From assembly GCA_937968065.1 (NCBI GenBank), contig CALBUD010000061.1, positions 1-5,984 on the forward strand: a DNA stretch of 5,984 nucleotides, in the 5' to 3' direction. Positions 1,950 to 5,366 of the stretch are shown in pieces. The notes beneath the pieces are model-generated. The model made no database searches, was not told the DNA's origin, and saw nothing but the letters and a program-made list of their open reading frames with translations. This DNA comes from Candidatus Iainarchaeum sp. (GTDB taxonomy: Archaea > Iainarchaeota > Iainarchaeia > Iainarchaeales > CSSED10-239). The translations under genes and the position numbers were made by a program. Position 1 is the first letter of the stretch. Each line of letters opens with the position of its first letter.

Positions 1950-2369
1950 ATGAAAGTTTATTTTGCAGGATCAATTACTGGTGGAAGAGATGATCAAGAA
2001 ATCTATTTAGAGATTATTAATTATTTAAAAGAAAAAAAAATGAATGTTTTAACAGAACATCTTGCTGATAAAAATCTATCTAGTTATGGAGAAACGAAAC
2101 TTACAAGTAAAGAAATATTTAAAAGAGATGTTGAATGGATTAAAGATGCTGATCTTTTAATTGCTGAAGTTACACAAGTATCTTTAGGTGTTGGTTATGA
2201 GATTGGATTTGCAGAAAGTTTAGAAAAAAAAATAATTTGCCTTTATAGAGAAAAAGAAGGTGAAAGATTATCAGCTATGATTGATGGAAATGAAAATGTT
2301 AAAATAATTAAATATAAAGAATTAAAAGATTTAAACGAAAAATTAAATGAGATTATAGGAGAATTATAA
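1950..2369 (+). CDS. 2'-deoxynucleoside 5'-phosphate N-hydrolase, DNPH1/Rcl-like (nucleoside 2-deoxyribosyltransferase superfamily), apparently catalytically intact
   Basis: The 139-aa protein is near-collinear with mammalian DNPH1/Rcl as I remember it. Shared segments are VYFAGSITGGRDD (cf YFCGSIRGGRED), VLTEH, RDVEW..DADLLIAEVTQVSLGVGYEIG (cf QDLEW..ADVVVAEVTQPSLGVGYELG), IICLYR....ERLSAMIDG (cf ILCLFR...GRVLSAMIRG). Equivalents of the Rcl catalytic Tyr, Asp and Glu are present (Y4, D60, E84). An SD-like GTGA (1940..1943) lies 6 nt upstream of the ATG. Confidence 0.87.
   Translation: MKVYFAGSITGGRDDQEIYLEIINYLKEKKMNVLTEHLADKNLSSYGETKLTSKEIFKRDVEWIKDADLLIAEVTQVSLGVGYEIGFAESLEKKIICLYREKEGERLSAMIDGNENVKIIKYKELKDLNEKLNEIIGEL
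2181..2246 (+). repeat. Copy 1 of a 66-nt paralogous core block shared by the two DNPH1-like genes
   Basis: Ungapped hand alignment with 2595..2660 gives 52 of 66 identical positions, including 22 of the first 24. The block encodes SLGVGYEIGFAESLEKKIICLY. Confidence 0.8.
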
Positions 2370-2783
2370 ATGAAAATGTTTTTTACATATAAATCAAAAG
2401 GAAGTATTGATACTTCAGATAAATTAGAAAAAATAAATAACTTTCTTGAAAAGAAAGGAGAACTTTTAAGTAAAGATTTAAGATTAAAAAACTTTAAACC
2501 ATCTGGAGAAAAGATGAATGATAAAGACATACTTGACAGAAGTTTAAATTTAATTAAAGAATGTGATGTTTTTATTGCAGATGTTTCTTTTCCTTCTTTA
2601 GGTGTTGGATATCAGATTAATTTTGCAAAAAATCTTAATAAAAAAATAATTTGTTTATATGAAGTTCAAGTAAAACAAGAACTTTCTCCAATTATTAATA
2701 GAGATAACTATATTCATTTAATAAAATATAAAGATTTAGAAGAGATGTTTATTCAACTAGAATTATATTTTAAAAGGTTATAA
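2370..2783 (+). CDS. Degenerate DNPH1/nucleoside 2-deoxyribosyltransferase-like paralogue, predicted non-catalytic (nucleophile Glu replaced by Gln)
   Basis: The 137-aa ORF has its ATG directly abutting the upstream TAA (TAAATG at 2367..2372). A strong AGGAG (2357..2361) lies 8 nt upstream, inside the preceding gene. The core CDVFIADVSFPSLGVGYQINFAKNLNKKIICLY aligns without gaps to ADLLIAEVTQVSLGVGYEIGFAESLEKKIICLY of the upstream gene. Q82 replaces E84 (cag at 2613..2615 versus gag at 2199..2201). S58 aligns to D60. The N-terminal loop is GSIDTS instead of GSITGGR. Confidence 0.75.
   Translation: MKMFFTYKSKGSIDTSDKLEKINNFLEKKGELLSKDLRLKNFKPSGEKMNDKDILDRSLNLIKECDVFIADVSFPSLGVGYQINFAKNLNKKIICLYEVQVKQELSPIINRDNYIHLIKYKDLEEMFIQLELYFKRL
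2595..2660 (+). repeat. Copy 2 of the 66-nt paralogous core block shared by the two DNPH1-like genes
   Basis: See 2181..2246. The block encodes SLGVGYQINFAKNLNKKIICLY, and 52 of 66 nt are identical by hand alignment. Confidence 0.8.
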
Positions 2784-2786
2784 GAT

Positions 2787-3290
2787 ATGAAAGGAAGAAA
2801 TAACTTAACTAACATTAAAAAAAATATTAAAAAAGACATTGGGAAAACCATAAATCCTAAAAACAGCTTTTCTGGATCTATTAATCTATTGAAAAGTTAT
2901 AAAGAATCTAAATCTAAAAACCCAATATTTGAAAGATTGAGAAAAGATAATATGAATTTAGCAATATTAAATAGTAGAGCTAACATTCTATTAAAAAAAA
3001 ATCTAAATCCAGATTTGGCATTTTCTATTCATGAAAAAATAACTAATATTGAAAATGTAGTTTTTAGTCATTCTCAAAAGATGATTACTTTAGAAAGGAT
3101 TATTAAAGAAAAAGGTAATTTTGCAGAAAATGTCGGTAATAGTTATCAAATTAAAAAAATAGTTGAAATTGATAAAAAATATAAAAAATATTTTTCAGAA
3201 GTTATGAAAAAATCAAATCAAGTAGATAACTTAAATGATTTAAATAAATTATTAACATATTATGAAAAACTGTTTAAAACAATTTTATAA
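2787..3290 (+). CDS. Hypothetical Lys/Asn-rich protein (167 aa), an orphan embedded in the operon
   Basis: The ATG is 3 nt after the upstream stop, with AAGGT (2774..2778) 8 nt upstream. The 167 codons contain no stop in very AT-rich DNA. There is no Cys or Trp, no hydrophobic segment long enough for a membrane helix, and no signal-peptide-like N-terminus. I recognise no catalytic motif. The composition suggests a mostly helical soluble protein. Confidence 0.6.
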   Translation: MKGRNNLTNIKKNIKKDIGKTINPKNSFSGSINLLKSYKESKSKNPIFERLRKDNMNLAILNSRANILLKKNLNPDLAFSIHEKITNIENVVFSHSQKMITLERIIKEKGNFAENVGNSYQIKKIVEIDKKYKKYFSEVMKKSNQVDNLNDLNKLLTYYEKLFKTIL

Positions 3291-3310
3291 AATTAAAAAT
3301 TAGGAAAAAT

Positions 3311-4000
3311 ATGAAAGGAAAATTAATTGTTATAGATGGAACTGATGGTACTGGAAAACATACACAAACAATGCTTTTAAAAGAAAATCTTGAAAAATTA
3401 GGATATTTTGTAGAAACTATTGATTTTCCACAATATGGAACTAAATCTGCAGGACCAACTGAAGATTATCTTAATGGTAAATATGGGTCTGCAAACGATG
3501 TTACTCCTTATCAAGCATCTGTTCTTTATGCTGTTGATAGATTTGCAGCATCTTTTAAAATAAAAGAATGGTTAAATCAAGGAAAAGTTGTTCTTTGTGA
3601 TAGATATGTTTCAGCAAATATGGGACATCAAGCAGGAAAGATAAAAGATTTAAAAGAAAGAGATAAATTTCTAGAATGGTTATTTGATTTAGAATTTAAT
3701 ATTTTTAAGATACCAGAACCAGATATTAATATTTTATTATATTTGGATGTTGATCTTGCAAGAAGTCTTGCTCAAAAAAATGAATCTAAAAAATTTACAA
3801 ATGATGTTAAAAAAAACGATATTCATGAAAAAGATCCAGAGCATATGAAAAAAGCACTAGAATCTTTTTTATATGTTGCTGATAAATATAATTGGATAAA
3901 AATTGATTGTACTGATAAAGAAATTGGAATAAAAACAAGAGAAGAAATCTCAAAAATAATTTTTGATAAAATAAAAGAAAAAGGAGTTTTTAACATATGA
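3311..4000 (+). CDS. tmk: Thymidylate (dTMP) kinase
   Basis: The P-loop is LIVIDGTDGTGKHTQ (G10..T18) and the DRY motif is VVLCDRYVSAN (D97-R98-Y99). Downstream come EPDINILLYLDVD plus a lid-like segment. The overall length of 229 aa and the architecture fit the Tmk family. AGGA (3302..3305) lies 5 nt upstream of the ATG. The TGA stop overlaps the thyA start (ATGA at 3997..4000). Confidence 0.9.
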   Translation: MKGKLIVIDGTDGTGKHTQTMLLKENLEKLGYFVETIDFPQYGTKSAGPTEDYLNGKYGSANDVTPYQASVLYAVDRFAASFKIKEWLNQGKVVLCDRYVSANMGHQAGKIKDLKERDKFLEWLFDLEFNIFKIPEPDINILLYLDVDLARSLAQKNESKKFTNDVKKNDIHEKDPEHMKKALESFLYVADKYNWIKIDCTDKEIGIKTREEISKIIFDKIKEKGVFNI

Positions 4001-4863
4001 AAGCATACTTAAGTATTATAAAAAAAATTATAGAAAAAGGAGAAGTTAAAGATAATAGAACTGGTGTTAACACACTTGCTATTGCTGGAGCTATGTTTGA
4101 ACATGATATGGAAGATGGATTTCCATTACTTACAACTAAAAGTGTTCCATTTAGACTTGTTGCATCAGAACTTGAATTTTTCATAAAAGGACTTACAGAT
4201 AAACAATGGTTAATTAAAGAAAATAATCATATCTGGGATGAATGGTGTTCTCCTGATATTGTTCCTTATGGAACTGATGAAGAAACAAAATATAAAATGA
4301 AAGAAGAAAGAGAACTTGGACCTATCTATGGTTGGCAATGGAGGCATTTTGGAGCAAAATATACTTCTTTTGATAAAGCACCTGAAGGTAATGGTATTGA
4401 TCAACTTAAAAAAATGGTTGAAACTTTAAAAAAAAATCCAAATGATAGAAGAATGATTGTTTCTGCATGGAATCCTATAGATATACACCGAATGGCTCTT
4501 CCACCTTGCCATTATGGTTTTCAAGTTACAGTTATTAATGGAAAATTAAATCTTTTATGGAATCAAAGATCTGTTGATTCTGCTTTAGGCCTACCTTTTA
4601 ATATTGCAAGTTATGGTTTACTTTTACATTTACTTGCAAAAGAAGCAGGTCTTAAAGAAGGTAAACTAATTGGATTTTTAGGAGACACTCACATTTATGA
4701 AAATCATATTGAAGGTTTAAAAGAACAACTTAAAAGAGAACCCTTTACTTTACCAAAAATAATAACCAAAAATTTTAAATCTATTTTTGATTGGAAATAT
4801 ACAGATTCAGAAATTATTGATTATAAAAAACATCCACCAATAAAGTTTGAAATTGCAGTTTAG
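3997..4863 (+). CDS. thyA: Thymidylate synthase, ThyA type (canonical, reductive methylation)
   Basis: The 288-aa protein is collinear with E. coli and human TS from memory. Conserved positions are DNRTG (R21), E58, IWDEW, LGPIYGWQWRHFG, NPNDRRMIVSAWNP (R151/R152), MALPPCH (nucleophile C171), NQRSVD (D194), LGLPFNIASY (N202, the dUMP-specifying Asn), GDTHIY (H232, Y234), and a C-terminus ...KFEIAV like human ...MEMAV. The short insert after IWDEW resembles the human and B. subtilis ThyA-type proteins. AAGGAG (3981..3986) lies 10 nt upstream, and the 4-nt ATGA overlap with tmk implies translational coupling. Confidence 0.97.
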   Translation: MKAYLSIIKKIIEKGEVKDNRTGVNTLAIAGAMFEHDMEDGFPLLTTKSVPFRLVASELEFFIKGLTDKQWLIKENNHIWDEWCSPDIVPYGTDEETKYKMKEERELGPIYGWQWRHFGAKYTSFDKAPEGNGIDQLKKMVETLKKNPNDRRMIVSAWNPIDIHRMALPPCHYGFQVTVINGKLNLLWNQRSVDSALGLPFNIASYGLLLHLLAKEAGLKEGKLIGFLGDTHIYENHIEGLKEQLKREPFTLPKIITKNFKSIFDWKYTDSEIIDYKKHPPIKFEIAV

Positions 4864-4886: not shown

Positions 4887-5366
4887 ATGAAAGAAATAAT
4901 AATTATTGCAGCTGTTTCAAAGAACAATGTTATTGGAAAAGATAATAAGATACCATGGTATATTAAAGAAGATTTTCTTCATTTTAAAGAACTAACAACA
5001 GGGTATCCTATAATAATGGGAAAAAAAACCTTCTTATCTTTACCAAAAAAACCTTTACCTAACAGAACAAATATTGTTTTAACATTTAAAGAAGATAATT
5101 TTACTTATCCTGAAATAATTATTAAAAATTCTTTAGAAGATGCAATAAATTTTGGACATTCTTTAAATGATAAGATATATATTATTGGAGGAGCTTTTGT
5201 TTATAAACAAGCAATTTCTCTTGCAACTAAACTTGAAATTACAAGAATTGATAAAGAATATGAGGGAGATACTTTCTTTCCTGAGATTAATTTAAATATT
5301 TGGAAAATTATTAAAGAAGAGAAACATGATGGTTATTCTTTTTTAACATACATTAAAAAGATGTGA
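4887..5366 (+). CDS. folA: Dihydrofolate reductase (FolA type)
   Basis: The 159-aa protein begins with IIAAVSKNNVIGKDNKIPW.IKEDF.HFK, with D29 aligning to E. coli D27. Other motifs are PIIMGKKTF.SLP.KPLPNRTNIVLT, IYIIGGAFVYKQ, L.ITRID.EYEGDTFFPE. AGGA (4874..4877) lies 9 nt upstream, and the stop is TGA. Confidence 0.93.
   Translation: MKEIIIIAAVSKNNVIGKDNKIPWYIKEDFLHFKELTTGYPIIMGKKTFLSLPKKPLPNRTNIVLTFKEDNFTYPEIIIKNSLEDAINFGHSLNDKIYIIGGAFVYKQAISLATKLEITRIDKEYEGDTFFPEINLNIWKIIKEEKHDGYSFLTYIKKM

Follow-up and report, generated by a model that had tools for sequence, protein, structure and literature searches.

Why does an archaeal operon for the thymidylate cycle carry two adjacent DNPH1-like genes, the second of which lacks the catalytic nucleophile of the family? 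The question is raised by a stretch of 5,984 nucleotides from Candidatus Iainarchaeum sp. (contig CALBUD010000061.1, assembly GCA_937968065.1), hereafter the window, whose long open reading frames (ORFs) are close-packed and all on the + strand, to which the window coordinates given below refer. Gene A (1950-2369, 139 aa) is predicted to encode an intact 2'-deoxynucleoside 5'-phosphate N-glycosidase of the DNPH1/Rcl type, and gene B (2370-2783, 137 aa) a paralogue with the same fold. The known DNPH1 enzymes are homodimers made from a single gene; they sanitise the nucleotide pool and are a current drug target. An original prediction, made from the letters of the window alone, saw in the pair an enzyme followed by a pseudoenzyme that might serve as its partner. 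The answer at which we arrive is a dead but conserved paralogue, probably a non-catalytic partner of A or a nucleotide binder.

In human DNPH1 the catalytic triad consists of Y24, D80 and E104; the water of the second step is activated by E55, the leaving base is stabilised by H56, and the phosphate is held by S98 and by S128', the latter contributed by the helical extension of the partner subunit (PMC10603095). The dimer interface is formed by the third helix, alpha3 (PMC10603095). The dimer is essential for catalysis, its active sites are built from both subunits, and residues A129' and M130' of the partner line the base pocket (PMC10483697). The E104Q mutation abolishes activity and leaves binding of the substrate 5-hydroxymethyl-dUMP (5hmdUMP) in place, and R30A removes most of the 5hmdUMP binding signal (PMC12751057). 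Isothermal titration calorimetry gives about 0.42 sites per monomer and suggests, together with the crystals, that one site is used per dimer; half-of-the-sites behaviour is accordingly suspected in the human enzyme, and is unsettled (PMC12751057). In MilB, Phe17 occupies the position of the Tyr and accommodates ribose (PMC10603095).

Gene A has what this mechanism requires. It matches PF05014 with 63.4 bits (cut-off 28.8), rat Rcl with an E-value of 3e-28 and human DNPH1 with about 6e-27 (overall 3e-28 to 1e-26), and is ~45% identical to DNPH1/Rcl across 113 residues. Y4, D60, S78, E84 and S108 align with the residues of rat Rcl that have the same roles, and all seven functional residues are present when E36 and H37 are included. 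The nucleophile Glu84, equivalent to human E104, is encoded by gag at 2199-2201. Within the A clade, H37, D60, S78, E84 and S108 do not vary, and E36 hardly does. The family match and the alignments thus bear out the earlier claim that A keeps all the hallmarks of DNPH1/Rcl. By its residues, A is predicted to be a working DNPH1-type N-glycosidase of deoxynucleoside monophosphates and is an ordinary prokaryotic member of the family.

Gene B is a paralogue of A, with 41% identity across 128 residues (BLASTP, E=1e-28), as had been proposed for these tandem ORFs of 139 and 137 aa. The similarity is highest in the block formed by the SLGVGY motif, alpha3 and beta4. On its own, B matches PF05014 over residues 46-100 only, with 22.9 bits, under the gathering cut-off of 28.8. 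Word-indexed and exhaustive HMMER searches of 1.84 billion representatives returned one B-type representative below 1e-30, and six B-type clusters at 90% identity (P0001, P0002, P0003, P0013, P0279 and P0280) emerged when 5.8 billion sequences were searched with a profile. Below these clusters the scores have a gap, from 197 to 130 bits, after which come ordinary members, with Glu, of a family that counts at least 7,937 proteins at E<=1e-10. A profile of the B clade matches DNPH1 at 4e-14, and its top match in PDB is the substrate-trapping E104Q mutant of the human enzyme (8qhq), with Gln opposite Gln.

We took the residue equivalences from an hhalign alignment of the B-clade and A-clade profiles (probability 99.95), which is free of gaps in the N-terminal 30 residues. 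It places F4 of B opposite Y4 of A, K35/D36 opposite E36/H37, S58 opposite D60, Q82 opposite E84, S76 opposite S78 and S106 opposite S108. The positions of human Y24, E55/H56, D80 and E104 are thus held in B by F4, K35/D36, S58 and Q82. Phe4 (2379-2381), in place of the catalytic Tyr, is invariant in the six clusters. The phosphate loop GSIxGGR is replaced by YKSKGSI (residues 7-13, 2388-2408), in which Y7, K8, K/R10 and G11 are conserved in the clade. Ser58 (2541-2543) stands in for the general acid and is Asn in the five other clusters. The nucleophile codon gag has become cag in B (Gln82, 2613-2615), as can be read directly in the sequence. Over the clusters, one finds Q, L, Q, Q, Q and Q at the position of the nucleophile, S, N, N, N, N and N at that of the Asp, and always F at that of the Tyr. 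The conserved trait is therefore that Glu is missing and not that Gln is present: the former holds in all six clusters, and the conservation of Gln, which had also been in question, fails in the cluster with Leu.

The elements that B retains are those for phosphate binding and dimerisation. Ser76 of SLGVGY (2595-2597), equivalent to the phosphate-binding S98 of the human enzyme (PMC10603095, PMC10483697), is invariant in all A and B sequences, and S76 and S106 are both invariant across the B clade. The dimer-interface helix alpha3 spans I83-K92 (2616-2645) and carries a charge swap, K87 for Glu89 of A. Residues E104-D112 (ELSPIINRD, 2679-2705) form the helical extension, with Ser106 kept. This extension, (Q/C/T/K)(E/D)LSxII(N/D)(G/R)D in the six clusters, is the most conserved B-specific segment of the protein; it reads Ser-Pro/Leu/Ser-Ile, versus Ser-Ala-Met in DNPH1, and the loop that precedes it is variable in A. 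At twelve sites each clade has a fixed residue of its own (B/A: F4/Y4, T6/A6, Y7/G7, K8/S8, S12/G12, S34/T35, N58/D60, L61/W63, Q82/E84, K87/E89, I108/M110 and D112/N114). Nearly all are pocket residues, to which the charge reversal K87/E89 on the interface helix is added. Profile alignment and the earlier reading of B agree on three points: S58 lies opposite D60, the GGR loop is lost and both serines are kept.

Could another residue have taken over the missing functions? D56 reads D/N/N/K/E/Q across the clade, which rules it out as a catalytic acid that has shifted, and D36 and E98 were rejected on the same ground, neither being conserved. The sole conserved B-specific acids, E/D104 and D112, lie in the extension, outside B's own pocket. 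The original prediction had left open that Y7 might correspond to Y4; F4 aligns with Y4, so Y7 is not its equivalent. B has thus lost, on these alignments, all five residues of the chemistry (the Tyr, the Glu/His pair, the Asp and the Glu) and has kept the serines, alpha3 and the extension. This supports the pseudoenzyme reading, in which B cannot perform DNPH1 chemistry, and the claim that B is catalytically dead stands with four more missing residues than the nucleophile on which it had been founded. Since B fails the catalytic test that defines the family's enzymes, we file it as a structural relative and not as a DNPH1 enzyme.

The fold itself is predicted to persist. An AlphaFold2 model of B built from a 71-sequence alignment has a mean predicted local distance difference test (pLDDT) score of 87.6, a predicted template-modelling (pTM) score of 0.84 and the expected beta-alpha layout, with a helix at residues 77-88. 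When the model was compared with PDB using Foldseek, the best 50 matches were all DNPH1/Rcl, with TM scores of 0.72-0.89 (about 0.8).

The B clade is monophyletic (neighbour-joining bootstrap 0.995) and confined to Iainarchaeota-like DPANN archaea. Its sister group within the family has a neighbour-joining support of at most 0.31, which does not separate a local duplication of A from a transfer. The six clusters are intact ORFs with 48-65% identity and invariant motifs. Pairwise ratios of nonsynonymous to synonymous substitution rates (dN/dS) are 0.30-0.74 for B, with a bootstrap 95% confidence interval below 1 in nine of the ten pairs, compared with 0.27-0.42 for A and 0.12-0.28 for serine hydroxymethyltransferase (SHMT) and thymidylate kinase (Tmk). 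These patterns mark B as an old paralogue that is selectively maintained. The objection that B might be a decaying duplicate, raised with the original prediction, is countered by the purifying selection and by co-inheritance with A in five lineages. Peptide patterns exclusive to B found nothing in GTDB genomes and JGI metagenomes, and no B-type protein was found in IMG/VR. An origin of B in a defence system or a phage was considered and rejected, as PADLOC and PHROGs gave no match to it.

The genomic association of B is tight in one direction. Context could be read for five lineages, and in each of them B is the neighbour of A or is parted from it by Tmk alone. The order is SHMT-A-B-(Lys-rich ORF)-Tmk-ThyA-DHFR (DHFR, dihydrofolate reductase) in the window and in loci L001 and L002, SHMT-B-A-Tmk-HAD-x-ThyX-dCMP deaminase in L003-L008, and B-Tmk-A-PurA in L116/L034. 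The linkage has therefore outlasted both the rearrangement of the genes (A-B, B-A and B-Tmk-A) and the switch between ThyA and ThyX. Among 16 GTDB and 80 metagenome loci with A-type genes, a second copy is found only in L034. As to whether the two copies co-occur, B is near A in each of the five lineages, and the converse does not hold, since A is often found without B.

In the window the ATG of B follows the TAA of A with no nucleotide between them, and a Shine-Dalgarno-like AGGAG (2357-2361) lies within the 3' end of A, 8 nt before that ATG. GGAG/GAGGA also precedes B in L001 and L002, and GGA(G) precedes ThyA, DHFR and Tmk. This layout, with the stop of A at the start of B and an upstream GGAG, occurs in three lineages. 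The claim that the two genes are coupled for roughly stoichiometric expression agrees with the layout there and does not hold as a general rule, given B-A in L003 and B-Tmk-A in L116/L034. A and B share one reading frame in the window, separated by the single TAA, and likewise in L002 with one extra codon; read-through of the TAA would yield a two-domain tandem protein resembling P0017, a DNPH1-DNPH1 tandem in which both Glu are present. We rejected A-B fusion by read-through as a general mechanism: the genes overlap by 4 nt in different frames in L001, and TAA terminates other genes here.

Two more observations concern the start of B. In L003, B and A agree in every letter over the 17 nt before the start and the first 10 bases of coding sequence (9985-10012 and 10417-10444, ATAAATGTGATATGAAATGAAGATAT), and have diverged much further elsewhere. 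This suggests a common initiation signal or local gene conversion. A 937-bp NCBI contig encodes an A-type protein near that of L001 (P0163) that has no stop and continues with WKYFLLIN. This tail resembles a frame-shifted start of B and is probably either another A-B pair truncated at the contig end or a sequencing frameshift.

B is not alone among DNPH1-like proteins in lacking the nucleophile. Nine others were found among the top 150 representatives (P0021, P0047, P0065, P0068, P0074, P0093, P0099, P0139 and P0160). In place of the Glu they have L, Q, I, V, T or M, and many of them keep a GGR loop and have the Tyr replaced by Phe and the Asp by Glu. Context could be read for three of them (loci L027-L032); these are single genes, in neighbourhoods of bacterial type with no intact DNPH1 within 6 kb, and twice beside TrmB-family regulators. 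DNPH1-like domains are also joined to other domains (P0038, P0160, P0034, P0017, P0060, P0097 and P0078). P0038 is a Tmk-DNPH1 fusion of the active type, and P0160 joins a dead DNPH1-like domain to adenylate kinase and a 300-aa tail; these kinase fusions echo the linkage of A and B to Tmk. The other fusions are Nudix-DNPH1 and fusions to DUF4269, GNAT and methyltransferase domains.

What, then, might a dead paralogue do beside A? In the best explanation that we can offer, B is a non-catalytic subunit that pairs with A, a step to which we give an even chance. We infer the pairing because the family dimerises through alpha3 and its sites require the serine of the partner, because the products of a duplicated homodimer gene are at first able to heterodimerise, because the similarity of A and B peaks in the SLGVGY-alpha3-beta4 block, and because the best-conserved private segment of B is the extension that would reach the partner's site. 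We also count in its favour the natural tandem fusion P0017. Under this explanation, B would pair with A via the common alpha3 helix, and its Ser106-Pro-Ile extension would complete the active site of A. The dimer would have one catalytic pocket, with an altered base-facing wall, and one pocket for binding only, which may sense or hold a nucleotide. The changed extension could alter base recognition in the pocket of A. A dead second site would cost little under half-of-the-sites behaviour of the kind suspected for the human enzyme, which would here be fixed in the form of an asymmetric enzyme. A stronger version, in which the AB heterodimer is obligate wherever both proteins occur, the Ser-Pro-Ile extension of the dead subunit finishes and retunes the live site and the remodelled lysine-rich pocket binds a nucleotide as an allosteric sensor of the thymidylate pool, is tentative and the less probable of the two.

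Several observations weigh against this explanation. SHMT, A and Tmk of L016, also from Candidatus Iainarchaeum, are 94-95% identical to those of L002, yet the locus has no B and SHMT, A and Tmk directly adjoin in that order. L014, L114 and L115 also carry A without B, and in L113, which lacks it too, a Lys-rich ORF with a frameshift lies between A and Tmk. A is thus not dependent on B, being the only copy in close relatives. B is ancestral to its group and was lost repeatedly. The gene order is not fixed, so the stoichiometric coupling cannot be general. Neither alpha3 nor the extension differs systematically between A proteins that have B next to them and those that do not. The loops of B's own pocket (YKSKGS and KDxR) are conserved, which fits autonomous binding of a ligand as well, and the other nucleophile-less proteins stand alone or, in one case, are fused to adenylate kinase. 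Heterodimerisation of A and B is a plausible proposal, drawn from sequence.

The alternative that best survives is that B acts alone, as a B2 homodimer that binds (deoxy)nucleotides without catalysis and serves as a buffer, a sensor or a substrate helper for Tmk; the linkage to A would then reflect a common pathway and not contact. We regard it as possible and less probable than pairing with A. The pocket elements conserved in the clade (Y7, K8, K/R10, G11, R38 and S76) agree with it, as do the position of K/R10, which is that of human R30, whose change to Ala takes away most of the 5hmdUMP signal, and the substrate binding that remains in DNPH1 E104Q. B has lost the GGR loop, however, which makes nucleotide binding itself putative. 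Genomic context points both ways. Elsewhere nucleophile-less relatives are stand-alone genes, kinases are joined to a dead domain in P0160 and to an active one in P0038, and in L116 Tmk comes immediately after B and parts it from A; yet B has been seen beside A only. The protein itself also speaks for a partner, in that its best conserved specific part is the extension, which acts in trans, and its alpha3 is still similar to that of A, as in new duplicates of homodimers, which can heterodimerise.

That B has acquired another chemistry or another substrate, for example a ribonucleotide as in MilB, handled by non-classical residues, seems improbable to us. F4 parallels the ribose-accommodating F17 of MilB, and the clade has conserved polar residues of its own (K8, K10, R38, E/D104 and D112). 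MilB still requires its Glu nucleophile, however, and E104Q kills the activity of DNPH1. The pocket of B has no conserved acid (position 82 is Q/L, position 58 is S/N, and D56 and D36 are variable), and a new enzymatic activity is therefore unlikely. Finally, that B is a functionless decaying duplicate or a chance ORF is very improbable: its loss in several close relatives, a dN/dS somewhat above that of A and a Pfam score under the cut-off are outweighed by intact ORFs with invariant motifs in six clusters at 48-65% identity, a bootstrap-supported dN/dS below 1, a confidently predicted fold and a linkage that persists through changes of gene order.

The pair lies in a complete thymidylate-cycle operon, in a window with a GC content of 19-31%. 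SHMT leads the cluster (711-1937; PF00464, 8.7e-162) and is preceded by a Lys/Asn-rich ORF of 169 aa (113-622). Downstream of B come a Lys/Asn-rich ORF of 167 aa with no family match (2787-3290), Tmk (3311-4000; PF02223, 7.4e-20), the thymidylate synthase ThyA (3997-4863; PF00303, 2.5e-97) and DHFR (4887-5366; PF00186, 7.3e-51). The last ORF runs past the end of the window; at the syntenic position, L001 and L114 have a gene of the dCTP deaminase family. Scans of the window for Rfam families, tRNAs, promoters and terminators gave nothing exceeding chance.

The slot between B and Tmk is variable, and in relatives the 167-aa ORF is missing or has been replaced. This ORF is 94% identical in DNA and 91% in protein between the window (2787-3400) and L002 (2529-3150), compared with DNA identities of just 75-84% in the flanking SHMT, A, B and Tmk. 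The high-identity tract begins near 2800 and extends into the 5' end of Tmk, and has the appearance of a recent recombination or transfer tract, set in an operon that has diverged elsewhere. When L016 (5412-5442) is compared with L002 (2119-3055), both B and the 167-aa ORF are missing and a 25-nt spacer containing ATGAAAGGTAGTG is left. In L002 the ORF and Tmk both begin with ATGA(A/G)AGGAAA, so a deletion between short direct repeats is possible in L016. The Lys/Asn-rich ORFs form a lineage-specific family of ~170-210 aa, found upstream of SHMT or between A/B and Tmk. Besides the two copies of the window, we observe them in L001 (4983-5495, 5505-6038 and 8461-8994), L016 (2730-3365), L113 (5439-5973, split by a frameshift) and L115 (about 2490-3390). 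They are weakly related to one another (26-41%) and have no match in Pfam, NCBIfam, PHROG or PADLOC.

A non-catalytic DNPH1 partner or nucleotide binder has not been described before for this family. The literature searched gave no enzyme/pseudoenzyme pair of DNPH1 or of nucleoside deoxyribosyltransferases, in keeping with the original prediction, which knew of no such DNPH1 pair. The B clade is very small and patchy, and what goes beyond a conserved dead paralogue is inference. If the pairing is true, the live and dead subunits would provide a ready-made system for testing whether the DNPH1 dimer uses one site at a time, and the nucleoside deoxyribosyltransferase/DNPH1 fold would join the families with conserved pseudoenzyme partners. 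Apart from the pairing, the operon shows that genome-reduced DPANN archaea, which rely on salvaged nucleotides, place extra and apparently regulatory proteins among their thymidylate genes.

Among known systems, a parallel in logic is that of the prozymes of trypanosomatids (S-adenosylmethionine decarboxylase and deoxyhypusine synthase), in which a dead paralogue is likewise kept beside the active enzyme of an oligomeric family whose sites span subunits (PMC5201418, PMC3663545). By the properties used to recognise prozyme-like proteins, B is a paralogue that has lost the catalytic residues, is under purifying selection and co-occurs with a paralogue predicted to be active. In the trypanosomatid cases, the complex and the activation are demonstrated and the active subunit is dependent on its partner, unlike here, where the pair is known from genes and A occurs without B. 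DmtZ, a phage DNPH1-like dAMP hydrolase/phosphodeoxyribosyltransferase, is also encoded in a cluster of deoxynucleotide-pool genes and is sometimes fused to a pool enzyme; unlike B, it retains the catalytic triad and is active, and the report describes no dead partner (PMC12884076).

Within the family, P0021, P0047, P0068, P0074, P0093 and P0139 resemble B in that L, Q, V or M, none of them acidic, follows GVGY/GVGF and in having Phe or His at the Tyr position where the N-terminus is present. They differ from it in keeping the GGR loop, in having Glu at the Asp position and in falling outside the B clade. The engineered human mutants E104Q, D80N and Y24F (PDB 8qhq, 8rps and 8rqd) each carry one of the changes whose equivalents B naturally combines. 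Unlike them, B is also altered at the E55/H56 positions and in the glycine-rich loop for phosphate, and need not still bind the same ligand. Compared with DNPH1/Rcl itself (PF05014 superfamily; 5-hydroxymethyl-dUMP N-hydrolase), A has all the catalytic and phosphate-binding residues. B has in common with it the fold, SLGVGY, the two serines, alpha3 and the helical extension, and departs from it in the Tyr, the Asp, the Glu and the Glu/His pair, with YKSKGSI where the enzyme has GSIxGGR. Unlike the DNPH1 homodimers, which come from a single gene, the two proteins are encoded by diverged genes that adjoin in an archaeal thymidylate operon.

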